Below, one piece after another: positions 11,705 to 50,768 of a DNA stretch of 50,768 nucleotides. The stretch covers positions 1 to 50,768 of the forward strand of contig LJUC01000001.1 in NCBI GenBank assembly GCA_001303695.1, read 5' to 3'. Position 1 is the stretch's first letter. Each line of letters begins with the position of its first letter. The position numbers were made by a program, and so were the translations under genes. This DNA comes from Phycisphaerae bacterium SM23_30 (lineage in GTDB: Bacteria > Planctomycetota > Phycisphaerae > Sedimentisphaerales > SM23-30). The notes below the pieces were generated by a model. The model saw only the letters and a program-made list of their open reading frames with translations, made no database searches and had not been told where the DNA came from.

Positions 11705-12350
11705 GATTGTACCTCAGTATTACAAAACCGGCTAGTTATTCCTATTTTCTACCAAATCCTTTTGAATAACAATAAAATCATCTTTGGCAGGCTGCTTCCT
11801 AGTGCGCGGTTAGGCGTTCAACCACCCCGCTTTATAAATATAATAACACAGGGATATAATCTTTGTCAAGGATTTACTTATCTACTTTATTTATAAGGAG
11901 TTATAGGGCGTTAGGGCCGCGTAATATCTCCATTGCGCCCGGCAAAGATTCCAGGTGGGGTAAAACTTTGAGATATAAATATGAATCTGAGATCCTAAGT
12001 TACGACCTGAGCTGCAGGCGATTTGTATCAACGTATGTTGTTTAATATCAACATCTTATAACAAAATTGCCTGAAATCCTTGATATTGCCGGCACAAATC
12101 AAATTGGAGATATTATTCCCTTGGCAAATATTATAGTAAATCTTATTGATTTCAATAACTTCTTTGGTTAGAATAATTTATAGTATGAAGGCGGCTGGAA
12201 AATGTCACCTGCTTTCTTATCGTATAAAGTATATATATGCAGAATTTAATCAGGTTCTGATTTAAATCTATGGTTCTGCTCATTTGCCGGAAGATCCTTA
12301 GGATTGATCTATATTAATTAGTATCATATTTGCGTTCAGGAGGCTCTAAG

Positions 12351-21379: not shown

Positions 21380-21705
21380 CCGTTAGTAATGAAGGGGCGG
21401 TAACCGTCGTTAAGCCCGTGGGGCCGATCACGGCGGGAGAACTGGAGGAACTGGACAAAAAGCTGGATAGTTTAAACCGAAATTGGACCAAACGCGTAGT
21501 TATAAACATGAGCGAAGTTGCTTTTATTGACAGCGCCGGTTTGGAACTTTTCATCCGTTATCAGAAGCAGCTAGACGAACGGGGATTAAAACTGAAATTA
21601 TGCGGTATGAACGAAATAACCCAGAAGATTTTTGATATAACTCAGCTTTCGCGTTTTTTTGAGATATTTGCCGATACCACCGGCGCAGTACGGAGTTTCT
21701 TGTGA
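21370..21705 (+). CDS. STAS domain protein (anti-sigma-factor antagonist / SpoIIAA-like)
   Basis: 111 aa. VINMSEVAFIDSAGLELFIRYQK is the typical STAS core. Overlaps the upstream gene by 10 nt and the downstream ATPase start by 4 nt (GTGA). Confidence 0.8.
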   Translation: MQITVSNEGAVTVVKPVGPITAGELEELDKKLDSLNRNWTKRVVINMSEVAFIDSAGLELFIRYQKQLDERGLKLKLCGMNEITQKIFDITQLSRFFEIFADTTGAVRSFL

Positions 21706-23456
21706 AACTATTATCACAAACCATCAAAATAGGCCAGATACTGATTCAGCAAGGCCACTTAACCGAAGGGCAGCTTCAAGAGGCTCTGAAGCGACAAAAG
21801 AACACGCGTAAGAAGCTCGGGGAGTTGCTGGTAGAGGAAAAGATTGTCGAGGAGTCGGTGATGCTGGAATGCTTGTCGGAGCGTCTGGGTCTGCCGGCCG
21901 TTAAGCTGCGGCCGGGATTAATCGATCCCTTAGCGGTGGACATCATCAGCAAGGATCTGGCTGAGCGTTATACCATCATACCGATGTTCAAGGTGGAGCA
22001 GACCCTCACGGTGGCTATGGCCGAACCGCAGGCCCTGCTGGTAGTGGATGATCTGGAACAATCCACGGATTTGCAAATTCAACCGGTGATCGCTCTGGCC
22101 GGCAATATCAATGAGTTCATTAAAAAATACTACGCCCAAAACGTAAAAATGGATAGTTTTGTCGCATCCCTGGAAGATGCCCAGGTGCAGGTGGTGGAAA
22201 AAGAAGCCTATGATGAAGAAGCGATTATTGATTTATCGGAAATCTCCGAAGGCAGCCCCGTGGTCAACCTGGTGAATATGAGCCTCATGCAGGCGGTTAA
22301 GGAAGGCGCCTCCGATATTCATGTCGAACCCGATGAAAATTTCGTCCGAATACGTTATCGAATTGATGGGGTACTGCATGACCTGATGACGCCGCCGAAA
22401 GAATGGCACGCGGCAATCATCTCGCGCATCAAGGTTATGGGACGCATGGACATCGCGGAAAAGCGAGTTCCTCAGGAAGGGCGAATTCACATCAGAGTCG
22501 AAGATCGAGAAGTGGACGTGCGCCTTTCATCGATGCCGACCATTCTCGGGGAAAAGGTCGTCATGCGAATTTTGGATAAAAGCAACCTGCAACTGAACCT
22601 GGACAAGCTCGGCTATGAAATACAGATGGTACGGGCCCTCAAACGGATGTTGACCCGCCCCCACGGTCTGTTTTTAGTGACCGGTCCCACCGGCAGCGGC
22701 AAAACCACCACCCTGTATTCAGCCTTGGACCTGCTCCGCAACAAAGATCGCAACATTATCACCATCGAGGACCCGGTGGAGTATCAGTTAGAACTGGTTA
22801 ACCAAATCCAGGTGCATGAAGCGGTAGGTTTGACTTTTGCCCGTACTTTAAGGTCGGCATTGCGTCAGGATCCGGACATCATCATGGTTGGCGAGATTCG
22901 TGACGAAGAGACGGCCAAAGTGGCCATTCAAGCGGCCTTGACCGGGCATCTGGTGCTGAGCACGCTACATACCAACGATAGTCCCGGCGCCGTTACTCGG
23001 CTGCTGAACATGGGTTGTGAACCTTATCTGCTGGCGTCCTGCCTGGTAGGCGTCGTGGCCCAGCGGTTGCTGCGCACCATCTGCCCCAAGTGTAAAACAA
23101 CCTATTTCCCCGAGGAATCGGTGTTGGATGAAATCAATTGGCAGGGACCCCGCAACCGCGCTTTTCATCGAGGTGAAGGTTGTCAGCTATGCCATGACAG
23201 CGGCTTTAAAGGACGACGCGCCATTTGTGAAGTGCTGGAAATGACTCTGCCAATTCGGGATCTGATATTAACCCGCCCCAGTGCCGATGAAATTAAAGCC
23301 CTGTTGAAAAAAGGCCCCTGGCGTGACCTCCGGCAGGCCGGCATGCTCTGCGTCGAACAAGGGATAACCAGTATCGAGGAAATGATGCGCGTCTGCTTCA
23401 TCGAAGAAGAATCGACTAGTGATAAAAAAGAACTCGTCGCCGAAGTATCCGAGTAA
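21702..23456 (+). CDS. gspE: type II secretion / type IV pilus assembly ATPase (GspE/PilB/MshE family) with MshEN-like N-terminal domain
   Basis: Walker A GPTGSGKTTT. Walker B IIMVGEIRD. His box GHLVLSTLHTND. Tetracysteine CPKC...CQLC. The N-terminus carries two 24-aa MshEN-type motifs separated by a 5-aa spacer (residues 9-61). Confidence 0.9.
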   Translation: MKLLSQTIKIGQILIQQGHLTEGQLQEALKRQKNTRKKLGELLVEEKIVEESVMLECLSERLGLPAVKLRPGLIDPLAVDIISKDLAERYTIIPMFKVEQTLTVAMAEPQALLVVDDLEQSTDLQIQPVIALAGNINEFIKKYYAQNVKMDSFVASLEDAQVQVVEKEAYDEEAIIDLSEISEGSPVVNLVNMSLMQAVKEGASDIHVEPDENFVRIRYRIDGVLHDLMTPPKEWHAAIISRIKVMGRMDIAEKRVPQEGRIHIRVEDREVDVRLSSMPTILGEKVVMRILDKSNLQLNLDKLGYEIQMVRALKRMLTRPHGLFLVTGPTGSGKTTTLYSALDLLRNKDRNIITIEDPVEYQLELVNQIQVHEAVGLTFARTLRSALRQDPDIIMVGEIRDEETAKVAIQAALTGHLVLSTLHTNDSPGAVTRLLNMGCEPYLLASCLVGVVAQRLLRTICPKCKTTYFPEESVLDEINWQGPRNRAFHRGEGCQLCHDSGFKGRRAICEVLEMTLPIRDLILTRPSADEIKALLKKGPWRDLRQAGMLCVEQGITSIEEMMRVCFIEEESTSDKKELVAEVSE

Positions 23457-23460
23457 AATT

Positions 23461-24708
23461 ATGATCGTTAATTATCAAGCCATAGATCGCACCGGAGCCT
23501 TGGTCAACGACAATTTGGTTGTCGAAGATGCATCTCAGGCTTATGGACAACTGACCCGCAACGGATTAATACCGGTGCGCATCACCGCCCAGAAATCCAA
23601 ACCCATTTGTCAGGCTCAGGGCGGATCTGGGCTTTTTAGTCGATGGGGATTTTCTCGGGTGCCGCGAAAGGACCGGGCCCGCCGAAAGGAACTGCCTTTT
23701 TTCACGGAGCAAATGGCCATTTTACTGGAAACCGGCACCCCAGTGGCGGCTTCCCTTAGTGCTTTAGAACGGCAATTAACCGATCCCCATTGGCGTTTAC
23801 TGGTGAGCCAACTAAAGAAAAAAGTATTGGAGGGGGGGTCATTGGCCTCCGCCGTAGCCGCCCACCCTAAGGTTTTTGATCCGATATACAGCAGCATGAT
23901 CGCGGCCGGGGAAGCCTCCGGTACTCTTTCCACTATATTAAATCGGTTGGCGCAGCTTTCCCGACAATCAGATCGCCTGCGCCACAAAGTTATTTCTGCC
24001 ATGATATACCCCGCCTTGCTTACTTCTATCGCTTTTACGGTGATGGGAGTGCTTATCTTTTTTGTACTGCCGCGTTTTGCCGTCATTTTTGAAGAAATGA
24101 GTGTAAACCTGCCGGGCACTACTAAAGCGCTGTTAACGATATCCAGGCTGGTTCGCAGCCATATTCTGGTAACGATACTCTCATCGGCAATGGTGGTTGC
24201 GGGTATTATCATCTTTTTGCGCAGCCAAAGAGGTCGGCGATTTGTTGCCCGCAATGTGTTGAAACTGCCCATTTTCGGCTCTCTCGTATCGTCGATCCAT
24301 AATGCCCGGATATGCCGATTGATTGGTTTGCTAATCGAGTCTAGTGTTCCCCTTTTAGAAGCGCTGGAATTAACCTGTTCTTCCGTCAAACACTATATGT
24401 ATGCTGAACTGTTGAAAAAAATACACCAGAGCGTTCTCAACGGTCAGTCCATGCATGAGGTCATGTCGGAAAGCAAGCTGGTGCCGGCCAGTATCACCCA
24501 GATGATTCACACCGCCGAAGAAAACGCCCAGGTAGGTAGAGTTATGACGCTGCTGGCGGATCATCTCGACGACCGTAATGAAACCCAGATCGGAACCTTA
24601 ACGAGTATTATGGAACCCGTGATCCTTATTTTCATGGGTATAATTATCGGTATGGTGGCTATATCTTTGGTGCTGCCGCTCTTTGATCTATCTCGAATTT
24701 CCGCATAG
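23461..24708 (+). CDS. gspF: type II secretion / type IV pilus platform protein (GspF/PilC family)
   Basis: ORF 23419..24708, with ATG 23461 just after the gspE stop. About 415 aa, three TM segments and the duplicated T2SSF-type cytoplasmic domain layout. Confidence 0.85.
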   Translation: MIVNYQAIDRTGALVNDNLVVEDASQAYGQLTRNGLIPVRITAQKSKPICQAQGGSGLFSRWGFSRVPRKDRARRKELPFFTEQMAILLETGTPVAASLSALERQLTDPHWRLLVSQLKKKVLEGGSLASAVAAHPKVFDPIYSSMIAAGEASGTLSTILNRLAQLSRQSDRLRHKVISAMIYPALLTSIAFTVMGVLIFFVLPRFAVIFEEMSVNLPGTTKALLTISRLVRSHILVTILSSAMVVAGIIIFLRSQRGRRFVARNVLKLPIFGSLVSSIHNARICRLIGLLIESSVPLLEALELTCSSVKHYMYAELLKKIHQSVLNGQSMHEVMSESKLVPASITQMIHTAEENAQVGRVMTLLADHLDDRNETQIGTLTSIMEPVILIFMGIIIGMVAISLVLPLFDLSRISA

Positions 24709-24719
24709 AGATCAACATA

Positions 24720-25982
24720 ATGCCACATAGGATCGGAAGAAAATATTCAGCCATTGGCCTGGATTTGGGCCGAACCGCCATCCGTGGCGTACAATTGATG
24801 CGACAGGGAAAATCACTGAATATCCATGCCGCCTTGGAAGTTAGTGTGGTGGAGAGTTACGGTTCACAGTTCGCATCTTTTGTTGAGCCTGAAGTCGATA
24901 AGTCTTGCCTTGCCGATAAACTTAAACGTCTTTTGGGGCATGGTGATTTCATAGGTCGAGATGTAATGGTGCACTGTCCGGCCGACAAACTGGATCTCCG
25001 TCCGGTGAAATTGCCGGCCGCCGGCTCCATACTACCCCGACAGGCGGTTTTAGGAGTCTTGCGTTTGCAAATGGGCAGTCACCTGCCCTTTCCCGTTGAA
25101 CAGGCGGTGTTTGATTACTTTCGGATGGATAGTGACCCTGCCGGCAATACCCTTCGAGTAATGGCCATAACAGCCGACGGCGCATGGATCAAACAACGTA
25201 TCAAATTAGTGGAATCTCAGGGATTACATTGCCTCGGGGTGGATGCCCTGCCCTGTGTTTTGGCCAGAGTCAGCCTTGGGGCCGACTCAAGCAAGGAAAA
25301 AGAGTTGAATCGTGAAATTAATAATTGTGATAGTCAGGATGATGAAATATCAACAACCGAGATTCTTATTGGCATTCTGGATATAGGTTTTTCCGGCAGC
25401 ACCCTGGTTGTTCGTAATAGTCAAAATCCCATTTTCTGTCGCCGGTTTTCCCTGGCCGGACTGGAGATGAACAGTATTTTGACTCAGCGTCTAGGAGTGA
25501 ATTTCGGCATAGCAGAAAATCTCAAACGGAGCTATGGACTTGATTGCCAAACCCGGCAGTTACGAACTACCCGCAACGGCTCCGACCAGGCGGCTTCCAT
25601 GGCGGCCGAGGCGAATGACAAAGTGGCGACGGGACCGGTAGTAGCAGTTGAAAAAACGGATGAACAAAAGGCGGAAGTCGCCAAAACTATTTACGCCGCC
25701 CTCCAGAGCGAGTTAGGCCATTTTGTCAAAGGATTAACTCGCTCACTCAACTACGTCATCACCGACCATGGCAGCGCCCGACTGGGAAAAATTGTGCTCT
25801 GTGGTTCGGCCGCTCATACTAAAAACTTGGAAAAGTTTTTAACACAGCAGTTTGAACTGCCGGTGGAAATAATTCGGCATCCTTTGTTAACGGAAATTGC
25901 CGAGAATCTGCCTGCCTCTCGGGCCCAGGTCGGTAGTTGGGCTACCGCGCTGGGCTTGGCTTTGTCAAAGGAGATGGCTTGA
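24720..25982 (+). CDS. pilM: PilM-like actin-fold pilus assembly protein
   Basis: IGLDLGRTAIRGVQL and ILDIGFSGSTLVV phosphate-binding-type motifs of the actin/Hsp70 fold. Sits immediately upstream of PilN- and PilO-like genes. Confidence 0.75.
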   Translation: MPHRIGRKYSAIGLDLGRTAIRGVQLMRQGKSLNIHAALEVSVVESYGSQFASFVEPEVDKSCLADKLKRLLGHGDFIGRDVMVHCPADKLDLRPVKLPAAGSILPRQAVLGVLRLQMGSHLPFPVEQAVFDYFRMDSDPAGNTLRVMAITADGAWIKQRIKLVESQGLHCLGVDALPCVLARVSLGADSSKEKELNREINNCDSQDDEISTTEILIGILDIGFSGSTLVVRNSQNPIFCRRFSLAGLEMNSILTQRLGVNFGIAENLKRSYGLDCQTRQLRTTRNGSDQAASMAAEANDKVATGPVVAVEKTDEQKAEVAKTIYAALQSELGHFVKGLTRSLNYVITDHGSARLGKIVLCGSAAHTKNLEKFLTQQFELPVEIIRHPLLTEIAENLPASRAQVGSWATALGLALSKEMA

Positions 25983-25983
25983 T

Positions 25984-26658
25984 ATGGTAGCGGTGAATCT
26001 TACTCCTGATGAATTTAAGACCGCCCAAAAGCGGCGGCAACGCTTGCGTTTTTGGGTATTGATGCTGCTGGCGGTTGCCATAACGGCGGGGGGCTGGGCA
26101 ACTATGATATATTTCGATTATCGGCGGGCGAATCAGACCCTGCATAGAATCACCCGGGAATATCAAGACCTGCAACATACTATTAAAGCGCTCGGTCAGG
26201 TGCGGAATCGGCTTGACCTTTGGCAGGATCGTATCGCCTTGCTTAATGAATTAAATCATTACCATGATTTTGTCAGAGTCACTGACTACCTCACGCAGCA
26301 TAGTCCTGATTTAATATATTTAGAGCAAATGAAATTCTGGCGGCCTGATAAGCCGCAAAGCACGGACCAACCCAAAACTCAATCTAAAGCGGCGCATATG
26401 TTTATATTGAAACACGGTGCCGAGGGCGAGGCTGTCGCGGCGACCGACACGAATATCGAACCCATTATGATATCTCTAAAAGGAAGATCGGTCAATTATC
26501 AGGCGGTGGCCGATTATTTGCAGATGCTAAGCTCGGCCGACATCATTGCCGGGGCCCAGTTAAAATACAGCCGTCGTCAATCCGCCTTATCATCGGAAAC
26601 CGGCGAAATCGTCGATTTTGAAATCGAGGCCCGGTTGCTTCCGATGCTTTCTCCATAG
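25984..26658 (+). CDS. pilN: PilN-like bitopic pilus/secretion alignment protein
   Basis: ORF 25897..26658, with ATG 25984 one nt after the pilM stop. N-terminal MVAVNLTPDEFK...RLRFWVLMLLAVAITAGGWA matches the PilN NLLP + TM pattern, followed by a coiled coil. Confidence 0.6.
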   Translation: MVAVNLTPDEFKTAQKRRQRLRFWVLMLLAVAITAGGWATMIYFDYRRANQTLHRITREYQDLQHTIKALGQVRNRLDLWQDRIALLNELNHYHDFVRVTDYLTQHSPDLIYLEQMKFWRPDKPQSTDQPKTQSKAAHMFILKHGAEGEAVAATDTNIEPIMISLKGRSVNYQAVADYLQMLSSADIIAGAQLKYSRRQSALSSETGEIVDFEIEARLLPMLSP

Positions 26659-26659
26659 G

Positions 26660-27214
26660 ATGTGGTATATGTTGATATGTAAAAAACCAAAAATTTTTGA
26701 CGTTGATCTTTACGCCCTTGCCGCCTTTGTCGGCTTTTGCGCTCTGACGTGGTTGGCGCTGATTAAGCCTCTGAATGAAAAAGTATCCCAGCAGCATCTG
26801 GATCAGGAAGAACAAAGGCTAAATAAAGAATCGGCACAAACCAAGCTGGTAAACCTCCAAGAATTGACCCGTCAAGAACAGGTTTTGGCCTCGAGGTTGA
26901 AGCAAACCAGAAACATTCTGGGTGATAATGCCGCAATACCTGAAGCGATAAGAAATATGGAACGTCTGTGCCGGCTTTGCGGGCTGCGCCTTGATGAAAT
27001 CAATCCGGGAGAAGATACTTTCACCCAACATTTCCGCAAAACCGGCTTGCATCTGCGCCTGAGCGGCACCTTCCCCCAGGGACAGGCGCTTTTGACTCAA
27101 ATCAGAGAAGAACTGTATTACGTGCGCATTAAATCCATGTTAGTGACTATGAAAGATACCCAGCTAAACCTGTGCGAGATAGTTATCGATTTGGACATTT
27201 TCAGTGCCCGGTGA
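26660..27214 (+). CDS. pilO: PilO-like bitopic alignment protein
   Basis: ORF 26618..27214, with ATG 26660 one nt after the pilN stop. TM segment LYALAAFVGFCALTWLALI, coiled coil and a small C-terminal domain. Assigned by position and topology. Confidence 0.5.
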   Translation: MWYMLICKKPKIFDVDLYALAAFVGFCALTWLALIKPLNEKVSQQHLDQEEQRLNKESAQTKLVNLQELTRQEQVLASRLKQTRNILGDNAAIPEAIRNMERLCRLCGLRLDEINPGEDTFTQHFRKTGLHLRLSGTFPQGQALLTQIREELYYVRIKSMLVTMKDTQLNLCEIVIDLDIFSAR

Positions 27215-27270
27215 CATTTGGAGATGCTCTGTTAAAAACTAAGAGCATCATATAATAAGGTCGCATTACC

Positions 27271-27888
27271 ATGACGAAATCACGAAAGATTTACGTCGGC
27301 ATCTTAATAACGGCGATCAGCGCCCTTATATTTGATAAAGCGGTATTGCGCCCTTCGGTGAGCGAGCCTCAAACTACCCTGGCGCGCCCCGCCCAATCCC
27401 CAACGCCGGACACTAACGTCGCACCTCCGGTTGAGAAACCTCTCGACCAGCAATTCCCCTTTCCTGTTTCTCCCGTTCTATCTGCTACTACTTCCCTGTC
27501 TGCCGAAACAACGTCGGGGACGGCCAATAATTCAACCCTTTCCCTTAAAGAAGCAGTGCATAAAGTACTGCACGCCATAGGGAGCGGGCTTGCCCCGCCG
27601 GAAGTTCCCCATGAAACCAGAGATTTGTTTGCTGCTTCTGATGAATTTCTATCGGCCCTTCGTAACAATTCCCCGCTCCAGGACGATCAAAAAGCACCTC
27701 CAATACCCACCATGACCTTGCACTTGACGGGTATATTAATCGGGCCTGAAAATCGCTGCGCTGTAATTAATAACGAAGTGCTGTTTTGCGGTCAGAATAT
27801 AGGACCCTATCAAGTTCTGGAGATATATCCCGATCAGGTCATACTGGCGATACAATCGGAACGTATAACCTTGTTTCTTGATAAATAA
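27271..27888 (+). CDS. PilP / GspC-like protein (TM anchor, Pro/Ser/Thr-rich linker, small beta domain)
   Basis: N-terminal TM helix. Low-complexity linker rich in P, S and T. C-terminal TLHLTGILIGPENRCAVINNEVLFCGQNIGPYQVLEIYPDQVILAI resembles the PilP/GspC HR-domain pattern. Confidence 0.4.
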   Translation: MTKSRKIYVGILITAISALIFDKAVLRPSVSEPQTTLARPAQSPTPDTNVAPPVEKPLDQQFPFPVSPVLSATTSLSAETTSGTANNSTLSLKEAVHKVLHAIGSGLAPPEVPHETRDLFAASDEFLSALRNNSPLQDDQKAPPIPTMTLHLTGILIGPENRCAVINNEVLFCGQNIGPYQVLEIYPDQVILAIQSERITLFLDK

Positions 27889-28106
27889 CTTGCCTCGGAC
27901 CTTCGGTCTTTAGCCCTAACCTCCTGCGGTCGCCATTAATATTGGTATTGACGAGGTTTTTGCAAAACTTCGGTATTGATATAAATCTGGCGGCGGTGAT
28001 ACCCGATATAAAATAACGGTTCCTGTGAAATAATATGCCTACTATCGTTTTAGCAAATTCAGACATTTGATGAATATAAGAAAAAGCGAATAAAGGAGAA
28101 ACTCAT

Positions 28107-28640
28107 ATGTTCCAAAGAAATCCCCGGCGGAGGGCATTCAGCCTGATTGAGTTGGTGATAGTCATCGTAATTTTAGGCATCATCGCGGCTATTGCCATCC
28201 CCCGAATTGGCTCGGGAAGTAGAAACGCCGGCGAGTCGGCCCTGCGGGCCAACCTGGCCAGCCTCCGCAACGCCATTGACTGGTACTATGGCGAGCATCA
28301 CAACGTCTATCCGGGCGCCAATCCTGACGGCCTGGGGGGCGGGGCCGATTCGGAAGCCGCTTTTGTTAGTCAGTTGACCATGTACAGCGACGCAAATGGC
28401 AATGTTTCCGCTAGTAAAGATCCTGCCTTTCCCTTTGGGCCTTACATTCGCGTTGACATTCCCGAATTGCCCGTAGGGGCTAATGCCGGCCAAAATACGG
28501 TTACGGTGGTGAATCAGGCCGGTCCTCTGGTAGCCAATCCTGGCGACGGTAACGGCTGGCTCTTTAACGCCAACACCGGGCAGTTCATCGCCAATTCAAC
28601 GGATGCCGGCAGTGACGGTGTCACTTATGATTTGTACTAA
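28107..28640 (+). CDS. gspG: major pseudopilin (GspG-like, prepilin-type N-terminus)
   Basis: AAGGAG at 28093-28098. N-terminus MFQRNPRRRA/FSLIELVIVIVILGIIAAIAIPR. GspG-like LASLRNAIDWYYGEHHNVYPG. Followed by its own terminator. Confidence 0.8.
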   Translation: MFQRNPRRRAFSLIELVIVIVILGIIAAIAIPRIGSGSRNAGESALRANLASLRNAIDWYYGEHHNVYPGANPDGLGGGADSEAAFVSQLTMYSDANGNVSASKDPAFPFGPYIRVDIPELPVGANAGQNTVTVVNQAGPLVANPGDGNGWLFNANTGQFIANSTDAGSDGVTYDLY

Positions 28641-28697
28641 TCAGACTTAGTTGGCGAATTAATACACTTATTTGTGGAACTCATGACCTAAAGTCCG

Positions 28698-28746
28698 AAA
28701 ACAGGTCCTGGAGCGGCGGCTGTTTGCTGTCCGGGACCTGTTTTTT
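28698..28746 (+). terminator. rho-independent terminator after the major pseudopilin gene
   Basis: Stem CAGGTCC (28702-28708) pairs with GGACCTG (28734-28740) and can extend inward. Followed by TTTTTT (28741-28746). Confidence 0.55.
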
Positions 28747-28790
28747 CTATGTTTAACCAAACTTGTGCAAAACTTTAATTTTTATCCATA

Positions 28791-29342
28791 ATGTTTAATA
28801 CTGCGAAAATATTTTTTATCAAACCAAAAATCAGGAGCGGCTTTTCCCTGGTGGAACTGGTGATAAGCGCTTTCCTTGTTGCCCTCATCGCCGGAGCGGT
28901 CAGCTTGGCCCTGTATCAGTCCCATCAGCACAGCGACCGGACCCGCATCGACCTGATCCGGTTACAGCGAACCAACAAAATCCTGCAAACCATAGCCGAA
29001 GACTTGCGCTGGGCCCGGGAAATTCTGCAATTCGATGAACAAACGATAAGTTTCAGCACTCCTGATCCTGATAATATCGGTGCCACCTTGGAAATTACTT
29101 ATCAGTGGAATGAGTACCAATACGCCCTGTATCAATCGGTCGAGGGAGATTACCCCGTCTTGGTGGCGGAAAATGTTAACTTCTTTATTTTCCAGGCTGA
29201 TGTAGTGGAAGAAAAGTTGGGCCCCAAGACATATTCTTATCTCCGCGGCGTGACCGTAACCATACAGATAGGACCCCATGTTAACGACGGTTTGCAGCGA
29301 TACATCGAGTGCTATAACCGGCCCGTTTATCAACCGGAATAA
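28791..29342 (+). CDS. minor pseudopilin (prepilin-type N-terminal cleavage/methylation domain)
   Basis: Leader MFNTAKIFFIKPKIRSG / FSLVELVISAFLVALIAGAV, with Glu at +5. Confidence 0.7.
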   Translation: MFNTAKIFFIKPKIRSGFSLVELVISAFLVALIAGAVSLALYQSHQHSDRTRIDLIRLQRTNKILQTIAEDLRWAREILQFDEQTISFSTPDPDNIGATLEITYQWNEYQYALYQSVEGDYPVLVAENVNFFIFQADVVEEKLGPKTYSYLRGVTVTIQIGPHVNDGLQRYIECYNRPVYQPE

Positions 29343-37544: not shown

Positions 37545-37619
37545 TCGGGGTGACTGGATTTGAACCAGCGGCCTCCTGCTCCCAAAGCAGGCGCTCTTGC
37601 CAAGCTGAGCTACACCCCG
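37545..37619 (-). tRNA. tRNA-Pro (anticodon UGG)
   Basis: Reverse complement folds as a cloverleaf. Acceptor CGGGGTG/CACCCCG. D arm GCTC..GAGC. Anticodon stem CCTGC/GCAGG with loop TTTGGGA. T arm GCTGG-TTCAAAT-CCAGT. Discriminator A. 75 nt, CCA not encoded. Confidence 0.9.
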
Positions 37620-44751: not shown

Positions 44752-45216
44752 ATGGCAAAAAAATTCTTTAATACCCGTTGTGTATATTGTCTTAAGCGTT
44801 TTGAAAAATTAACTTCCGATCATGTTTTGCCTAGAGCATGGTATCCTGACAATACTCCGGAGAATCTTGAAAAATGGCAAGTTCCTGCATGCCCTGCATG
44901 TAATAGGGAGCACGGAATAAACGAGGAGGAATTGCTGTTAAAGCTTGGTTTACATTTTGATCCACAAAGGGGAAATATGAAGGGGATAGCTAAAAAAGTA
45001 ATTCGCTCAATGAGCCCAAGTCGTGGAAAGTCTAAGCAGGATCGTGAAAAGCGCCGAAAACAAAATATCCGCACAAAGAAAGAAATCAAGAAGGCATTGA
45101 ATTTGGTTCCTTCTCAATCAAACATTCTTCCTGGATTTGGTTTTAACAGGAAGTTTTCTCTACAACATCAGCTACCTTTATTAGTGTCTGAAGAACAACT
45201 TCAAAAATTTAGTTAA
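44752..45216 (+). CDS. HNH-motif nuclease-like protein (possibly the 5' part of an interrupted gene)
   Basis: CVYCLKRFEKLTSDHVLPRAW...VPACPACNREHG gives CxxC...DH...N...CxxC(N), the HNH zinc-finger layout. Lys/Arg-rich tail. Lies in an AT-rich islet. Confidence 0.6.
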   Translation: MAKKFFNTRCVYCLKRFEKLTSDHVLPRAWYPDNTPENLEKWQVPACPACNREHGINEEELLLKLGLHFDPQRGNMKGIAKKVIRSMSPSRGKSKQDREKRRKQNIRTKKEIKKALNLVPSQSNILPGFGFNRKFSLQHQLPLLVSEEQLQKFS

Positions 45217-45660: not shown

Positions 45661-45689
45661 TTGACAGGCTTAAAAACCTGATGTATATA
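45661..45689 (+). promoter_or_regulatory. sigma70-type promoter (TTGACA-17 nt-TATATA) driving the cobalamin riboswitch
   Basis: TTGACA at 45661-45666, a 17-nt spacer, then TATATA at 45684-45689. Confidence 0.6.
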
Positions 45690-45704
45690 CCATTCAATTG
45701 ACAA

Positions 45705-45880
45705 GTGAATATCGCCGGTTCTGGGCGGCTCAGATGAGCCTTAATAGGGAAGACGGTTAAAGGCCGTCGCGGACCCGCCGCTGTAATCGGGACGAACGCC
45801 GGATTATGCCACTGTCTCAAATGATGGGAAGGCCCGGCCAGTAGGATCAACCGAGAGCCAGAAAACCTCGCCCTTTACCG
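45705..45880 (+). promoter_or_regulatory. cobalamin (B12) riboswitch aptamer
   Basis: AATAGGGAAGACGGTTAAAGGCCGTCGCGGACCCGCCGCTGTAATCGGGACGAA matches the conserved GGGAA..GGT.AAA..CC...C.G.CCCGC..CTGTAA core. ATGCCACTG and GGGAAGGC follow. B12-box-like GAGCCAGAAAACCTCGCC at 45855-45872. The boundaries are approximate. Confidence 0.85.
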
Positions 45881-45979
45881 GAAAACCAACCAACGACTTC
45901 GTGGAATGAGTCGGGCGGTAATCCTTGGCTCGCCGGACGCTGATCTCACGCCGCAACGCCCTGGATAATCAAAGAATTT

Positions 45980-46016
45980 AAGCCTTGCCTTTCCCACGAA
46001 ACGCGAGGCTTTTTTA
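45980..46016 (+). terminator. rho-independent terminator (likely riboswitch expression platform)
   Basis: AAGCCTTGC (45980-45988) pairs with GCGAGGCTT (46003-46011) with one G-U pair and a 14-nt loop. Followed by a T-run to 46015. Lies between the aptamer and the first ORF. Confidence 0.6.
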
Positions 46017-46103
46017 TTGCCTATAACACGTATCTTGGAAAAAACGCCGATTTGTAATCAGCCCCGCGCTTTATCGCGGAGTCATGCTTTGGGAGCAGCA
46101 AAA

Positions 46104-46913
46104 ATGAGCAAACTAAAACAAAACTACGGTCTTCTTACGATCGCTTTATCTCTGGCGACAACTATCCTGACGCCTCCGGCCCGCGCCCACGTGACCGACT
46201 TCGACGATTTAATTCTGGCCCCCCAATCATACTGGAATGGTGCCGACAGCGCCGGAGGTTTCACCAGCGGCAGCGCCTCTTTCAATAATTCCTATTCCTC
46301 CGGAACCGGCTGGGAATATTGGGAAGGCTTCGCTTATTCCAACTTAACCGATACCTCCGTCTCCGGCCCGGCCGGTCAATACTCCGCTAGCGCCGGTTCC
46401 GGACAGAGCGGCTCGGCCAACTACGCCCTTGCCTTTGTCGGCTGGTCCGACGCCCCCACCGTAACGCTTAACCGCCCCACGATGGTGAAAAGCTTATACG
46501 TAACCAACAACAATTATGCTTATTATTCCATGCTCCACGGTGATATGTTCTCTAAAAAGTTCGGCGGCGCCGCCGGCGACGATCCCGATTGGTTCAAGCT
46601 TACCATAACCGGCAAAAACGCCGCCGGCCAGACGGCGGCAGCCAAAGATTTCTACCTCGCTGATTTTCGTTTCACCGATCCTGGTCAGGATTATATCGTT
46701 AACACCTGGCGCAAAATCGACCTGACGAGTCTGGGTACGGTTAAAAGCCTGGAATTCACCCTGACCTCCAGTGACACCGGTGCGTTTGGCATGAACACCC
46801 CGGCCTATTTCGCCCTGGATTCGATAACCGCTATTCCCGCCCCGGCGGCTATTTTACTCGGCAGCGTCGGCATAACGCTGGTAGGTTGGTTCCGCAAGCG
46901 AGAAATCCTGTAA
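46104..46913 (+). CDS. secreted protein, DUF4465-like (candidate cobalamin-binding), with PEP-CTERM-like C-terminal anchor
   Basis: ORF 46017..46913, with ATG 46104 and GGGAG 8 nt upstream. Signal peptide ...ILTPPARA/HV. SYWNGADSAGGF..WEYWEGFAYSNLTD..SANYALAFVG resembles my recollection of DUF4465. Tail ITAIPAPAAILLGSVGITLVGWFRKRE follows the PEP-CTERM pattern with PAP instead of PEP. Confidence 0.6.
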   Translation: MSKLKQNYGLLTIALSLATTILTPPARAHVTDFDDLILAPQSYWNGADSAGGFTSGSASFNNSYSSGTGWEYWEGFAYSNLTDTSVSGPAGQYSASAGSGQSGSANYALAFVGWSDAPTVTLNRPTMVKSLYVTNNNYAYYSMLHGDMFSKKFGGAAGDDPDWFKLTITGKNAAGQTAAAKDFYLADFRFTDPGQDYIVNTWRKIDLTSLGTVKSLEFTLTSSDTGAFGMNTPAYFALDSITAIPAPAAILLGSVGITLVGWFRKREIL

Positions 46914-47023
46914 TCCCGGCCAAAAAGGCAACAAAATACGACATGTCCGCCCGCGCTTGCCCCCGCCCACGTAGAGGCGGCAATACGGAAATGGATTATG
47001 GTAAATGTTGGTGTATAAAACAT

Positions 47024-47052
47024 CTGTCATCCCCGCGCAAGCGGGAATCCAG
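47024..47052 (+). repeat. REP-like palindromic element (translates as the common VIPAQAGIQ artefact)
   Basis: CTGTCATCCCCGCGCAAGCGGGAATCCAG with hairpin CCCGC-GCAA-GCGGG (47032-47045). Related CTGTCAT(C/T)CCGACC starts at 44460 and 44487. Confidence 0.4.
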
Positions 47053-47073
47053 ACGCCCAAGAAGGCTCAAAAC

Positions 47074-48168
47074 TTGAAAATTTCAAAAATATCCTTGTTT
47101 TTGATCCTTGCTTTTCATTGCTTGGCCTACGCCCAACAGGGACCTTACCCTGTTATGGGCATCAGCGGCTTTGTCGGTGCTGATGGGCGGCCTGCCCATC
47201 CCCTGGAGGACCCCGATAAAAGGATCAATCCCCTCTTTAGAGGCTGGGCCGGCGGGTATATCAACTACCTGCCCGCCCCCGGCGTCAACGCCCCCTGGAA
47301 TAATCCCCAACTGGCCCTGGGGCCGGTTACCGGCGATCACTTCCACATCGTCAGTCTCGGAGACCTCGATCAAGACCAGATCAGCCAGCAGGTCCCCCCC
47401 GGACAAATCACCCTTACCTTCAACGAACCAAACAATATCATTCGTGATGTTAAAGGCTATGACTTCGCCGTCTTTGAAAATGCCTTTGTCGTCCAGGGTC
47501 AGCCTGATCCCTGGCGGGGGTATGTCAACGCCGATATCATCGCCGAGTTGGCCTATGTGGAAGTATCTTCGGACGGGCTCCATTTCGCCCGCTTTCCCCC
47601 TGTCTCTCTGACCCCTCAGGCGGTGGGTCCCTATGGCACGGTGCGTATGGAAAATGTCTTTAATCTGGCCGGCAAACACCCAAATGCCGCCGGTCTCTGC
47701 CTGGGTACGCCCTTTGATCTACGGGATATAGCCGACGATCCGCTGGTGGCCGCGGACCGCGTTGATCCCAACAACATACGATTTGTTCGTCTCATCGACA
47801 TCCCCGGCTCCGGCCACTTCCAGGATCAGGCCCAATACCATATTGATCCCAATACCTGCCCATATTGGAAAAATTACCCTCAAAACCATCCGATTTACGA
47901 CGCCTGGGTTACCTGGGGCTCAGGCGGTTTCGACCTGGAAGCCATCGGCGTATTGACAGAGCAGCAATACCCCGCCGATATCAACTTGGACGGTATGGTG
48001 GATATGTATGACTTACATTTGTTTTCCTTGACCTGGCTGGACCGCTTTGGCCGCCCATCCTGGATCGATCGTTGCGACCTGGCCCCGCCCATAGATATGA
48101 TGGTTAACGGGCGCGATTTCGCCATCCTGGCCCAACAATGGTTGAAAAAGGAAAAATGGCGCAGGTAA
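47074..48168 (+). CDS. secreted hypothetical protein with C-terminal dockerin-like module
   Basis: ORF 47005..48168. The first 23 codons are the REP-like element, so TTG 47074 is preferred (GAAGG upstream). Signal peptide KISKISLFLILAFHCLAYA/QQ. C-terminal DINLDGMVDMYDLHLFSLTW...VNGRDFAILAQQW. Confidence 0.6.
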   Translation: MKISKISLFLILAFHCLAYAQQGPYPVMGISGFVGADGRPAHPLEDPDKRINPLFRGWAGGYINYLPAPGVNAPWNNPQLALGPVTGDHFHIVSLGDLDQDQISQQVPPGQITLTFNEPNNIIRDVKGYDFAVFENAFVVQGQPDPWRGYVNADIIAELAYVEVSSDGLHFARFPPVSLTPQAVGPYGTVRMENVFNLAGKHPNAAGLCLGTPFDLRDIADDPLVAADRVDPNNIRFVRLIDIPGSGHFQDQAQYHIDPNTCPYWKNYPQNHPIYDAWVTWGSGGFDLEAIGVLTEQQYPADINLDGMVDMYDLHLFSLTWLDRFGRPSWIDRCDLAPPIDMMVNGRDFAILAQQWLKKEKWRR

Positions 48169-48234
48169 TAAAAAAACTTCAAAGCAACTTTGATAAATAT
48201 ATTCCGTATCCCGGATAACCTGCCTGGTTTAATC

Positions 48235-49068
48235 ATGTGGACGTCGAAAAAAAATTGCGGTTTCACCCTCGTCGAGCTTTTGATCGTTATCTCGATCATT
48301 TCTCTATTGATGGCGCTGATCTTACCCGCCCTCGCCGCCGCTAAAGATCAGGCCCGCAGCGCCGTCTGTAAAAACAATATCCGCCAGATAGTATTGGCCA
48401 ATATCGGTTACGCCCACGAAAATGATGACTATTTCGTCATCGCCGCCTACAAAATCATCGACCTCTTCGACTTCGCCCACTGCAACCTGCAACGCTGGCA
48501 CGGCGCCCGAGACGATCTCAACTGCCCTTTCGATCCGCTCCGCAGCCCCCTGGTGCCCTATCTAGCCGGCGGCGCCGTCAAAGAGTGCCCCCAAAACGTC
48601 CCCTTCCGACACGGCGACCCCTGGCAGTGGGATTATGAAGACGGCTGCGGCGGCTACGGCTACAACCTCACTTATCTCGGCTCCCGGCTCGGGACCGGTG
48701 AACCCTTCGACCGGGCCTGCCTGCAAAGCGCCCGCTCCACGGATCTCCGCAAACCTTCCCAGACCCTTATGTTTGCCGATACCGCCATGGCTAAACGACA
48801 GCACGGCATGCCGTATTACCTGGAGTATTCTTTTGCCGAACCGCCCTTTTTCCTCGATCATCAGGGATTGCCTGTCAACGGTTTCTATGCCTCCCCCTCG
48901 ATTCACTTTCGCCACCGCGACTGCGCCAACATCGGCTGGGCCGACGGGCACGTGGACAGCCGACCCATGGCCCCCTTCGACCAGAAAAATGTTTACGGGG
49001 TAAAATCCGCCGATATGATGCTCGGCTGGCCCGAACCCCTCGACAACTCCCTCTTCGATCTGAAATAA
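48235..49068 (+). CDS. DUF1559 / H-X9-DG protein with prepilin-type N-terminal cleavage/methylation domain
   Basis: ORF 48190..49068, ATG 48235. MWTSKKNCG/FTLVELLIVISIISLLMALILPAL. C-terminal HRDCANIGWADGH matches H-x9-DG exactly. Confidence 0.9.
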   Translation: MWTSKKNCGFTLVELLIVISIISLLMALILPALAAAKDQARSAVCKNNIRQIVLANIGYAHENDDYFVIAAYKIIDLFDFAHCNLQRWHGARDDLNCPFDPLRSPLVPYLAGGAVKECPQNVPFRHGDPWQWDYEDGCGGYGYNLTYLGSRLGTGEPFDRACLQSARSTDLRKPSQTLMFADTAMAKRQHGMPYYLEYSFAEPPFFLDHQGLPVNGFYASPSIHFRHRDCANIGWADGHVDSRPMAPFDQKNVYGVKSADMMLGWPEPLDNSLFDLK

Positions 49069-49070
49069 CC

Positions 49071-49088
49071 CCATGAAGCATTCAAAAA
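49071..49088 (+). repeat. 18-nt direct repeat, left copy (CCATGAAGCATTCAAAAA)
   Basis: Identical to 50221-50238, exactly 1150 bp downstream. Contains an ATG plus the first 5 codons (MKHSK) of the BtuF-like gene. Confidence 0.9.
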
Positions 49089-49290
49089 TTCCAATCGTCG
49101 CTGCAAGTGGTTTGATTAGTCAAAAACTGAAAGATGACCAAATACATGATCACAATTTCAAAGTTATACCTGCGGGTAATTATCGTAATGGAAATCATTT
49201 AGTCTTGATTATTCACTGTAGTCTAAGTAAAGTACTTGGGATGGTTTCGTTCCTGTAGGTCGATTAATTTTGATCAGCTATAATTTTATT

Positions 49291-49815
49291 ATGAGTTTCA
49301 AGCAAATGGCCGCCGCAGACCAAAAGACATTTCCGCCAAACATCAATATAAGAAACAACTTGAAACCCGGCGATATAGGCTATTTGACCTATTTGCACGG
49401 AATATTATATGCCCGAGAATGTGGCTGGGATTACACCTTCGAAGCTTATGTAGCCGGCCCTTTGGCGGAATTTGCCCGATCGCATAATGACCGGGAACGG
49501 ATTTGGATAGTGGAAAAAGATAAAATAGTTACGGGCTCGATGGCAGTGGTTGAAGCCGGCAAAGACGAGGCTCAACTCCGCTGGTTATTGCTTCACCCTG
49601 ATTTACGGGGGCGGGGGATGGGCAGATTTCTCATGGAACAGGCTATTGCTTTTTGCCGGGACCGGAACTACCAAATTGCTTTCCTCTGGACGGTTGGTTC
49701 ATTGACCGCCGCCGCCAGGCTATACCAATCGCTGGGATTTCGTGTGACGGAGGAAAAAACCCGTATGTTGTGGGGGGCGTTGTTAACCGAACAGCGCTGC
49801 GATTTAAAACTGTGA
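49291..49815 (+). CDS. GNAT-family N-acetyltransferase
   Basis: ORF 49270..49815. Acetyl-CoA motif A LLLHPDLRGRGMGRFLMEQAIAF (R/Q-x-x-G-x-G/A), then LYQSLGF. Confidence 0.8.
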   Translation: MSFKQMAAADQKTFPPNINIRNNLKPGDIGYLTYLHGILYARECGWDYTFEAYVAGPLAEFARSHNDRERIWIVEKDKIVTGSMAVVEAGKDEAQLRWLLLHPDLRGRGMGRFLMEQAIAFCRDRNYQIAFLWTVGSLTAAARLYQSLGFRVTEEKTRMLWGALLTEQRCDLKL

Positions 49816-49892
49816 CAGGATTGACCTGTTTTTCAGGATCCGCACCGGATGTATTGTAATCGAGTGTACTTTTTCAGCATCAACATGGAATT

Positions 49893-50015
49893 ATGCCCGG
49901 AGTCGCACGGATTGTTTTACCGGATTTCCCGCATCACATTACCCGGCATGGTAATAACCAGCAGGTCGTGTTTTTTGTCGATGATGATCGGCGTCTGTAC
50001 CCGGCAAAGAAATAA
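49893..50015 (+). pseudogene. 5' stub of a REP-associated / IS200-like Y1 tyrosine transposase
   Basis: 40-codon ORF MPGVARIVLPDFPHHITRHGNNQQVVFFVDDDRRLYPAKK*. It matches the conserved N-terminus (R..LPG.P.H..QRGNNRQ..F..D.D...Y) of RayT-like transposases, which are normally over 150 aa. Confidence 0.6.
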
Positions 50016-50037
50016 AGGTCCCTGGTACTAACAAGAC

Positions 50038-50204
50038 TTTTGCAAAATTGGATTTTGGCATACATTATTAAAGAAATTTCTTAGGGGAAATTTCTTTAAT
50101 AATCAACGCAAGCTTATATATTTCAATTATTTGGAACAATTTTTCGCCGGCGAAGTTAAATAAAAATATATCTCAAAAATATGCCAAAATCCAATTTTGC
50201 AAAA
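50038..50204. repeat. nested perfect palindromes (25-nt terminal inverted repeats enclosing a 17-bp hairpin), MITE/IS-end-like
   Basis: TTTTGCAAAATTGGATTTTGGCATA (50038-50062) is the exact reverse complement of 50180-50204. Inner hairpin ATTATTAAAGAAATTTC (50064-80) pairs with GAAATTTCTTTAATAAT (50087-50103). TTCGCCGGCGAA palindrome at about 50143-50154. Confidence 0.85.
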
Positions 50205-50220
50205 CTTCATTGCTAATATA

Positions 50221-50238
50221 CCATGAAGCATTCAAAAA
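50221..50238 (+). repeat. 18-nt direct repeat, right copy
   Basis: Identical to 49071-49088. Includes the start codon of the BtuF-like gene. Confidence 0.9.
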
Positions 50239-50768
50239 CATCGATAATTGCCCTGCTGCTCTTTGTCCTCGGTATGACCCTGTCCCTGCTTCTGTACTAT
50301 AGCATTAATCTCAAACCTGCTGGCTCGGCGCCCTCCGTCGATTCCCGGCCGCTGCCCTCTATCCCCCCTTTCCCTCAGCGCATCGCCTGCATGACCCCCA
50401 GTGTCACCGAATCCGTCTTCGCCCTCGGCGGCCAAGACCGCGTCGTTGGCGTCACCGATTTCTGCGACTATCCCCCCCAGGCCGCCCAAAAAGAAAAACT
50501 CGGCGGCTTCTTCAATCCCAACTTCGAACGTATCATATCGGTCAACCCCGACTTGATAATCTCTCAGGGTAAATCCGAAAAAATTACCCAATTTTGTCAA
50601 AAAGAAAACATCCCCCTTCTGCACGTCCGGATGAGCAATATCGAAGTGATATTTGACGACCTGACCCTCTTGGGCCGAACCCTCGGCTGCCGCCCACAGG
50701 CTGAAAAATTATGCGCCGAAATTCGCCAGACCTTACGGCAAATCGAAACCGCCCTCGCCGATCTGCCC
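50223..50768 (+). CDS. BtuF-like periplasmic cobalamin/siderophore-binding protein (ABC substrate-binding, partial, runs off the window)
   Basis: Open frame from ATG 50223 to the window end (182 codons), absent from the ORF track because it has no stop. TM/signal segment IIALLLFVLGMTLSLLLY. RIACMTPSVTESVFALGGQDRVVGVTDFCDYPPQA...LGGFFNPNFERIISVNPDLII matches the BtuF/TroA-like pattern (RIVSL.PS.TE.L.ALG...LVGVT.yCdYP). Confidence 0.8.
   Translation, partial: MKHSKTSIIALLLFVLGMTLSLLLYYSINLKPAGSAPSVDSRPLPSIPPFPQRIACMTPSVTESVFALGGQDRVVGVTDFCDYPPQAAQKEKLGGFFNPNFERIISVNPDLIISQGKSEKITQFCQKENIPLLHVRMSNIEVIFDDLTLLGRTLGCRPQAEKLCAEIRQTLRQIETALADLP

Follow-up and report, generated by a model that had tools for sequence, protein, structure and literature searches.

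The question raised by the locus described here is what a pilin-like protein does in an operon controlled by a cobalamin (vitamin B12) riboswitch. The operon occupies positions 45,661 to 50,768 of a 50,768-nt stretch of DNA from Phycisphaerae bacterium SM23_30 (assembly GCA_001303695.1, contig LJUC01000001.1, positions 1 to 50,768 of the forward strand), which as a whole is called the window below. It encodes a BtuJ-like DUF4465 protein (P1), a surface protein (P2), a prepilin-type protein (P3) and the first part of a btuF-like gene. Very probably this is a B12-scavenging operon, as a sequence-only reading of the same DNA had proposed; the riboswitch, the DUF4465 protein, btuF and the conservation of the P1-P2-P3 trio all support that proposal. 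The fuller account at which we arrive, and which we judge to be about evenly poised between right and wrong, is of a B12 acquisition operon repressed by its cobalamin riboswitch, with a P1-P2-P3 core conserved among the Planctomycetes-Verrucomicrobia-Chlamydiae (PVC) bacteria and with P3 serving in an inward relay.

The sequence-only reading had placed a promoter, a B12 riboswitch and an intrinsic terminator ahead of four co-directional genes (P1, P2, P3 and the btuF fragment), and all of these elements were recovered. Direct reading of the sequence finds a putative sigma-70-type promoter at 45662..45690 (+), in which TTGACA (45662-45667) and TATATA (45685-45690) are separated by 17 nt; a consensus scanner missed it only because the scanner demands a -10 hexamer whose sixth base is T. 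About 16 nt beyond the promoter begins a cobalamin riboswitch aptamer (RF00174; 45706..45889, +), which cmscan scored at 103 bits, far above the gathering score of 31.5 (E = 9e-25), and which spans the whole model (positions 1-189 of 189). Fold prediction then places an intrinsic terminator at 45980..46017 (+), where the hairpin AAGCCUUGC...GCGAGGCUU is followed by a U run. This hairpin (45980-46011) consists of 9+4 pairs followed by TTTTTTA, and it is seen in both the minimum-free-energy and the centroid folds. The riboswitch lies 5' of the DUF4465 and btuF genes with a terminator-type expression platform in between.

Related loci were gathered from a genome collection with P2 as the anchor (80 loci) and, reciprocally, from metagenomes with P3 as the anchor (80 loci), and were annotated with hidden Markov models (HMMs) for P1, P2, P3 and BtuF together with an nhmmer profile seeded with Rfam-confirmed aptamers. 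Counts for Phycisphaerae-type Planctomycetota refer to 52 non-redundant genome loci. Nearly all of the related loci come from uncultured metagenome-assembled genomes (MAGs) of imprecise taxonomy, and the open reading frame (ORF) calls are mechanical. A riboswitch lies upstream of the cassette in 47 of 48 evaluable genome loci and in 45 of 46 evaluable metagenome loci. When nhmmer riboswitch calls were re-tested with Rfam, 17 of 17 were confirmed, and Rfam also confirms the aptamer in many distant loci. The terminator is equally general: a hairpin (dG <= -12) with a U run was found no more than 250 nt 3' of the aptamer in 81 of 81 related loci, compared with 24 of 405 control segments (6%). In one Desulfobacterales MAG (L075, 2373-2725) a DUF4465-P2 gene is preceded by two riboswitches, the cobalamin one (99 bits) and, some 50 nt further upstream, one of the c-di-GMP-I class (50 bits); this may be a case of a B12 surface binder governed by two ligands in tandem.

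The gene architecture behind the riboswitch is far beyond chance, recurring in more than 100 independent loci. P3 stands directly 3' of P2 in 50 of 50 evaluable Phycisphaerae-type genome loci, P2 stands directly 5' of P3 in 67 of 67 evaluable metagenome loci, and the median distance from the P2 stop codon to the prepilin motif of P3 is 44 nt. DUF4465 is encoded upstream of P2 in 33 of the Phycisphaerae-type genome loci and fused to P2 in 16, and it is present in 49 of 52 metagenome loci. Among verrucomicrobial loci P3 follows P2 in 11 of 12, and the pair also occurs in Kiritimatiellia, Lentisphaerales and Planctomycetaceae; a coral-metagenome locus consists of riboswitch, DUF4465, core-only P2 and P3. 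With more than 100 loci from reciprocal scans, the link of the pilin-like gene to the riboswitch proves to be conserved across PVC bacteria and not a quirk of this contig. We consider it highly likely that both P2 and P3 genuinely belong to the operon and are conserved in it.

Only some of the parts deserve the label PVC-specific that the sequence-only reading had given them. The distribution of P3 is PVC-restricted, but P2 also occurs in Cyanobacteria, Desulfobacterota and an alphaproteobacterium, where P2 is found without P3 under Rfam-confirmed cobalamin riboswitches (eight cyanobacterial loci, plus the Desulfobacterota and the alphaproteobacterium). In two inspected cyanobacterial loci (L066 and L071), metE, which encodes the B12-independent methionine synthase, shares the riboswitch region with P2. 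Some P2 homologues of the cyanobacterial loci (L066, 702-8750; L071, 7001-11960; L077) bear RTX calcium-binding repeats or PEP-CTERM tails, and L066 also encodes an RTX/PD40 beta-propeller protein. In a Methanosarcina spelaei assembly, tblastn matches P2 (46%) to a 3.5-kb contig (L056) in which no intact P2 ORF was found; the fragment is probably of bacterial origin, either a contaminant or degraded.

P1 (46104..46913, +; 269 aa) had been called a DUF4465-like, PEP-CTERM protein, and an hmmscan of this ORF bears out the family (PF14717, E = 1.4e-54), with 185.6 bits against a gathering score of 25 over profile positions 3-176 of 176. DUF4465 is the domain of Bacteroides BtuJ1/BtuJ2 (PMC13398666), and its attribution to BtuH has to be corrected. 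B12 binding was shown in 2026 for eight divergent DUF4465 members (PMC13398666; bioRxiv 10.1101/2025.07.01.662609); PVC binders are known from Coraliomargarita, Haloferula and the planctomycete Mucisphaera, and the complex of Coraliomargarita D5EK51 with B12 was resolved at 1.85 Å (PMC13398666). That complex (9hmu) is the best solved structure for P1 (E = 4e-25). The HI-loop motif that defines the family, (G/N)TPAY(F) with its B12-contacting tyrosine (PMC13398666), reads MNTPAYF at residues 230-236 of P1, and in the DE-loop helix YAYYSMLHGD of P1 aligns to YAYDSMLNGD of 9hmu. Across 30 P1 orthologues N231, T232 and P233 never vary, and Y235 and F236 hardly do. By the binding of its published homologues, P1 is thus a likely BtuJ-like B12 binder.

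P1 begins with an N-terminal signal peptide and ends in a variant PEP-CTERM-type tail, IPAP-AAILLGSVGITLVGWF-RKRE, in which the E of PEP is replaced by A. This tail has no Pfam PEP-CTERM (PF07589) match and reaches only 21 bits against 65 with NF038129, while about 35 P1 orthologues end in a canonical VPEP...RRRK. The window DUF4465 protein is on record for just one other contig (1.7 kb).

P2 (47074..48168, +; 364 aa) starts with a signal peptide, has a core of about 270 aa that forms a beta-sandwich and ends in a tail with a dockerin fold (residues ~296-364), as judged from an AlphaFold2 model (pLDDT, the predicted local distance difference test, of 80) and Foldseek. No family reaches threshold in a Pfam scan. 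The dockerin character that had been assigned to this ORF is supported at the level of fold, though Dockerin_1 (PF00404) scores 15 bits on the window protein, below the Pfam cutoff of 22.9: the tail matches dockerin 2y3n_B with Foldseek probability 1.00, a target template-modelling (TM) score of 0.84 and a root-mean-square deviation of 2.0 over 67 columns. The P2 family profile matches dockerin at E = 4.1e-5, and 17 of 67 P2 orthologues match Dockerin_1 at E<0.01 (best 7.5e-7). The first calcium-binding segment of the tail, DINLDGMVDMYD, is canonical and the second is degenerate. The expectation that the binders would carry PEP-CTERM or dockerin anchors thus agrees with the tails found on P1 and P2. 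Foldseek found nothing significant for the core among PDB structures, and the possibility that it is a diverged DUF4465 was ruled out by hhalign (probability 1.4%).

The P2 family is large, with thousands of homologues and 442 clusters (50% identity) at E<=1e-30. The commonest partner domains in 86 diverse family representatives are Dockerin_1 (14), DUF4465 (13) and PEP-CTERM (13), and the anchor that follows the core varies by clade among dockerin, PEP-CTERM and a 150-aa verrucomicrobial domain. Many homologues are 570-600-aa DUF4465 fusions. Such fusions, found in 16 of 51 genome loci, in 26 metagenome loci and in 13 of the 86 representatives, argue for cooperation between P1 and P2. In a Sedimentisphaerales MAG (L037, 7977-10209) P2 occurs twice in tandem, flanked by DUF4465 and P3. 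In the window, the 160-nt spacer between P1 and P2 contains a GC-rich, REP-type-like hairpin, TCCCCGCGCAAGCGGGA, at 47030-47052, which lacks a U run and has no further copy in the window. Elsewhere in the window, on the reverse strand, a 1354-aa subtilase with a C-terminal Dockerin_1 above the Pfam threshold (12330-16394) and a 1772-aa protein built of Ig-like, CARDB and DUF1573 domains (6386-11704) are encoded; dockerin-tailed secreted proteins seem to be a general trait of the source organism and not particular to the B12 operon.

P3 (48235..49068, +; 277 aa) is a prepilin-type (type IV pilin or pseudopilin-like) H-X9-DG protein. Its N-terminus scores 33.5 bits against 21.2 with N_methyl (PF07963) and 27.8 bits against 16.3 with TIGR02532, and it has a class III signal (KKNCG followed by FTLVELLIVISIISLL) with cleavage between G and FTLVE, an E at +5 and a long hydrophobic N-terminal helix. 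The prepilin cleavage motif, FTLxE directly after G, is kept in 67 of 69 P3 orthologues, and the C-terminal H-x9-DG motif (HRDCANIGWADG, residues 227-238 of P3) in 69 of 69; several orthologues carry the JGI label 'prepilin-type processing-associated H-X9-DG protein'. TIGR01710 scores 35.9 bits on P3, indicating a GspG/PulG-type N-terminus; ComGC matches too, profile matches to PilA and GspG range from E = 2e-10 to 3e-4, and all NCBIfam equivalog models score far under their cutoffs on P3. AlphaFold2 predicts a long N-terminal helix and a beta-rich globular domain of about 210 aa, which has no match in the PDB and in particular matches no solved pilin. Compared with solved B12-binding or pilin folds, the P2 core and the P3 globular domain gave nothing significant beyond the dockerin tail and the pilin helix. 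P3 therefore resembles the type II pseudopilins, type IV pilins and competence pseudopili (GspG/PulG, PilA, ComGC) in its class III signal and hydrophobic helix, but differs from them in its globular part and in having its gene in a vitamin regulon rather than in a pilus or secretion operon.

The identification of P3 as a DUF1559 protein did not survive. P3 scores 18.8-19 bits with PF07596 against a cutoff of 23.3, over profile positions 2-28 (27 of 268), and only 6 of 69 orthologues match DUF1559 at E<0.01; true membership is ruled out by the Pfam thresholds. The TIGR04294 HMM likewise does not match the window P3, and the nearest orthologue reaches 18.7 bits against 19. P3 shares with the DUF1559 and TIGR04294 families a prepilin N-terminus, a C-terminal H-x9-DG motif and a PVC-restricted distribution, but it falls below both cutoffs and forms an orthologous subfamily of its own that goes with P2. 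Orthologues of P3 exceed 150 bits, compared with 70 bits or less for nearby paralogues. About 1900 P3 homologues are known, often on contigs equal in size to those of P2 homologues. As a general rule P3 is unlikely to be a cohesin-like receptor of the P2 dockerin, because P3 persists where P2 ends in PEP-CTERM (L060, L069, L073) or in the 150-aa verrucomicrobial domain.

The fourth gene (50223..50768, +) is cut by the window end. Its product is a btuF-like periplasmic B12-binding protein with a Peripla_BP_2 match (E = 2e-16; 60.5 bits against 27.5), and its best NCBIfam match is the BtuF equivalog NF002894 (E = 1.3e-15), which gives 57 bits against 234 for a protein truncated at residue 182. 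P3 and btuF are separated by a secondary 1150-bp insertion (49071..50238, +) with an 18-nt direct repeat, CCATGAAGCATTCAAAAA, at both ends (49071 and 50221, spacing 1150 nt); the repeat covers the btuF start codon. Removal of one repeat and the insert gives TAA-CCCC-ATG, which is the ancestral 4-nt gap between the pilin-like gene and btuF that the sequence-only reading had deduced. The gaps in relatives agree with it, being 2 to ~20 nt in four of five junctions (L043, L088, L089, L100) and ~150 nt in L014, and no relative with that junction has an insertion there. The insertion holds a GNAT acetyltransferase gene (49270-49815; PF00583, E = 1.7e-14), a 61-aa ORF starting at the duplicated btuF start, and a 25-nt perfect inverted repeat (50038-50062 and 50180-50204) that encloses a second, 17-nt inverted repeat and has no other copy in the window. 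Through the GNAT insertion, btuF may have lost its coupling to the riboswitch in this contig.

Relatives indicate what the complete operon may look like. The gene order is P1-P2-P3-BtuF-ABC_tran-FecCD in L014; it is P2, pilin-like gene, BtuF, ABC and FecCD, with overlapping ORFs, in L055; and a Sumerlaeota locus runs from riboswitch through P2, a shorter prepilin-type gene, BtuF and ABC to FecCD. The trio of the window goes with btuF and, if these relatives are a guide, would go with btuD and btuC as well.

The absence of a TonB-dependent BtuB from this DNA, which the sequence-only reading had pointed out, holds for the window ORFs under an HMM built from the TonB-dependent receptor sequences of related loci, and for those window ORFs that were scanned with Pfam. 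The same HMM found no receptor linked to the trio in ~100 Phycisphaerae-type loci. Linked receptors were found only in L064, L061, L081, L168 and L169, with a partial one in L157. In L064 (2060-9035), from Lentisphaerales, there are two cobalamin riboswitches; the first precedes a 655-aa TonB-dependent receptor, and the second precedes a 1071-aa protein, in which two DUF4465 domains are fused to P2, and then P3. A strict complementarity of TonB receptor and P3 is therefore not clean.

The locus of the crystallised DUF4465 protein of Coraliomargarita akajimensis (L169, 8001-16287; Caka_1781 = D5EK51) comprises DUF4465, a TonB receptor, a P2 homologue (575 aa, E = 1e-38), FUR, FecCD and ABC genes, with Peripla_BP_2 on the opposite strand. 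P3 is not present, and Rfam finds no cobalamin riboswitch within 8 kb, so the locus may be regulated differently. It is like the window locus in its PVC host, its PEP-CTERM DUF4465 protein (4e-25 to P1), its P2-family protein and the FecCD, ABC and Peripla_BP_2 genes alongside; it is unlike it in the TonB receptor between DUF4465 and P2, in the FUR-family gene, and in lacking P3 and an Rfam riboswitch. Thus, P2 recurs in B12 loci with or without a TonB receptor.

Among known systems, a close counterpart is the 'extracellular relay' of Bacteroides thetaiotaomicron, in which the surface lipoproteins BtuJ, BtuH, BtuK and BtuG work with BtuB and BtuFCD under B12 riboswitches (PMC13616437, PMC13398666). 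Like the window locus as we read it, it is a riboswitch-repressed operon in which DUF4465 (BtuJ), a high-affinity surface binder, captures B12 first, extra surface proteins of unclear role are co-encoded, and B12 is handed to BtuF-BtuCD. In contrast to it, the window locus has neither BtuB nor BtuG, uses PEP-CTERM and dockerin tails in place of lipoprotein lipidation, and encodes unrelated accessory proteins (the P2 beta-sandwich and the pilin-like P3). Since P2 and P3 match no solved structure other than dockerin, they match none of the deposited BtuK structures (PMC13616437).

On this basis we propose how the operon might work. At high intracellular B12 the aptamer would bind B12 and the downstream hairpin would terminate transcription, as suggested by the anatomy of the region and by what is generally known of such riboswitches; at low B12, transcription would pass through the terminator into the operon. 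P1 and P2, exported by their Sec signal peptides and held at the surface by the PEP-CTERM and dockerin tails, would capture corrinoids, which for DUF4465 follows published homologue binding and for P2 is our inference. P3 would be cut by prepilin peptidase and then handled by a type II secretion or type IV filament machine. The window encodes one such machine at 21.7-29.3 kb: a type II secretion/type IV pilus assembly cluster (21702-29342) contains T2SSE with MshEN, T2SSF, PilM, PilN, PilO and T2SSB-like genes by Pfam. At least two prepilin genes (28107-28640 and 28791-29342) lie in the same cluster, and no secretin was recognised among the scanned ORFs of the window. P3 would connect the B12 held by P2 at the outer membrane with BtuF in the periplasm and the importer BtuCD, and its place in the relay would be that of the TonB-dependent BtuB in classical loci. 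Competence pseudopili are a precedent for filament-driven ligand import across the outer membrane.

That P3 acts in an inward relay is the tentative part of the account, and we hold it to be slightly short of an even prospect. We favour it because P3 is embedded before btuF in several tight operons, because no TonB receptor is linked to the trio in the ~100 Phycisphaerae-type loci, and because the single classical receptor-bearing locus, that of Coraliomargarita, is without P3. Several observations weigh against it. No B12-binding fold is detectable in P2 or P3 by structure or profile comparison. The 1150-bp insertion splits P3 from btuF, so that riboswitch control of btuF in this contig is uncertain. 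Adjacent btuF genes were found in only 4 of 47 genome loci and 5 of 69 metagenome loci, and the trio is therefore usually alone. The P2-P3 pair lacks a detectable riboswitch in 6 of 10 evaluable verrucomicrobial loci. L064 has a riboswitch-controlled TonB receptor as well as the trio, so P3 is not simply exclusive of BtuB, and a Luteolibacter locus has a TonB receptor 4 kb away. The earlier suggestion that the pilin-like and anchored proteins stand in for the outer-membrane step is unproven: the lack of linked receptors and the receptor-bearing Coraliomargarita locus without P3 leave room for it, and L064 counts against it. Finally, the sole published view of locus-embedded PVC pseudopilins assigns them to type II secretion (PMC13274419).

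This last view leads to the main rival, which we find doubtful: P3 would be a locus-specific type II pseudopilin that moves P2 (and fused DUF4465) across or onto the outer membrane, and B12 would enter by an unlinked TonB-dependent BtuB or a porin. The constant partner of P3 is indeed P2 and not btuF, the N-terminus of P3 is of the GspG/PulG type, T2SSE and T2SSF genes lie within the window, and a TonB receptor occurs with the trio in L064 and near it in L081. A verrucomicrobial alginate-utilisation locus offers a parallel, in that it contains a pulG-like pseudopilin with 67 paralogues, and its authors tie the type II system to enzyme export (PMC13274419). However, P2 homologues occur without P3 in Coraliomargarita and in a Puniceicoccaceae MAG, so P3 is not always needed for P2 export in PVC bacteria; the presence of P3 is independent of the type of P2 anchor; and PEP-CTERM proteins are thought to take the exosortase route. 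Furthermore, cargo-specific pseudopilins are not known to be a feature of type II secretion.

The two remaining rivals are less likely. It is decidedly improbable that P3, anchored in the inner membrane and outside any filament, acts as a periplasmic chaperone that binds B12 or BtuF and provides an extra hand-off or storage step. The Pfam name of the related DUF1559 family, SBP_bac_10, is a solute-binding-protein label, P3 lies directly 5' of btuF in several loci, and 277 aa is large for a structural pilin; but the AlphaFold2 model of P3 has no periplasmic-binding-protein fold and no PDB match, P3 misses the PF07596 threshold, retention of the cleavage motif in 67 of 69 orthologues points to prepilin processing, and P3 co-occurs with P2 rather than with BtuF. 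That the pilin-like gene is a neutral neighbour of P2 with no part in B12 handling, retained through the shared ancestry of close genomes, is almost certainly wrong: most sampled loci do come from one broad lineage (Phycisphaerae-type MAGs), in which synteny is common and FAA_hydrolase and ComF-like flanks recur, but the pair is kept in Verrucomicrobiota, Kiritimatiellia, Lentisphaerales and Planctomycetaceae, where P2 identity in the best tblastn segment has dropped to 36-45% and the flanks differ, outlasts DUF4465-P2 fusions and the gain or loss of btuF, has operon-like spacing, and involves P3 orthologues clearly set apart by score from nearby paralogues.

Several features of the surroundings may be recorded. 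Directly upstream of the operon promoter lies a 154-aa HNH endonuclease-like ORF (44752-45216; PF01844, 23.8 bits against a cutoff of 21.4), adjoined by an 80-aa ORF without family. Neither was seen in the inspected Phycisphaerae-type loci L002-L006, where the riboswitch is flanked by FAA_hydrolase and an unknown 255-aa gene. Downstream of P3, a ComF-like gene, whose product combines a double zinc ribbon with a phosphoribosyltransferase domain, is present in L002 (12291-12842), L003, L004 and L006, directly after P3 in L002, L004 and L006. ComF is elsewhere a competence (DNA-uptake) factor; its adjacency to P3 may be coincidental synteny. A tRNA gene at 37545-37619 (-; Rfam, 67.8 bits) has the anticodon loop UGG and probably encodes tRNA-Pro.

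The riboswitch, the DUF4465 binder and BtuF are already known components, and B12 binding by PVC DUF4465 proteins has been published. In the literature that could be searched we found no description of the P2 family, nor of any cobalamin regulon that has a pilin-type protein among its conserved members; the papers found on DUF1559, H-X9-DG, pilins, PEP-CTERM or Sedimentisphaerales together with cobalamin gave no link of pilin-like proteins or P2 to B12, and a pilin-type component goes unmentioned in the B12-uptake reviews (PMC13616437, PMC13398666). The locus therefore represents a widespread, riboswitch-marked B12-acquisition module with two components, P2 and P3, that are missing from current uptake models.

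The riboswitch provides a clean functional label, which places one H-X9-DG prepilin-type subfamily in a pathway with a defined small-molecule ligand. The sequence-only reading had hoped for a functional handle on DUF1559; what is gained is pathway context for a related subfamily and not for DUF1559 itself, but it is the first such context for this large group of pilin-like proteins, and it makes a role of the P3 type testable by simple assays. B12 (1.3 kDa) is too big for ordinary porins and is therefore a good probe of the route by which large nutrients pass the planctomycete outer membrane. B12 exchange also shapes the sediment, peat and digester communities in which Phycisphaerae-type organisms live.

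A broader generalization, which we regard as rather unlikely to be right as it stands, is that B12 crosses the outer membrane of PVC bacteria by way of a type IV filament (pseudopilus), which would replace the TonB-dependent BtuB or work beside it. P3 would then be a cargo-specific modular pilin that takes B12 from P2/DUF4465 inward to BtuF, and its H-X9-DG/DUF1559 paralogues would be substrate-specific uptake pilins. If this were true, these paralogues, which number in the tens to hundreds in Planctomycetota, Verrucomicrobiota and Lentisphaerota, would be to PVC bacteria what the SusC/SusD expansions are to Bacteroidota, and the uptake of macromolecules in association with fibres that has been observed in planctomycetes (PMC5394234) would gain a molecular basis.

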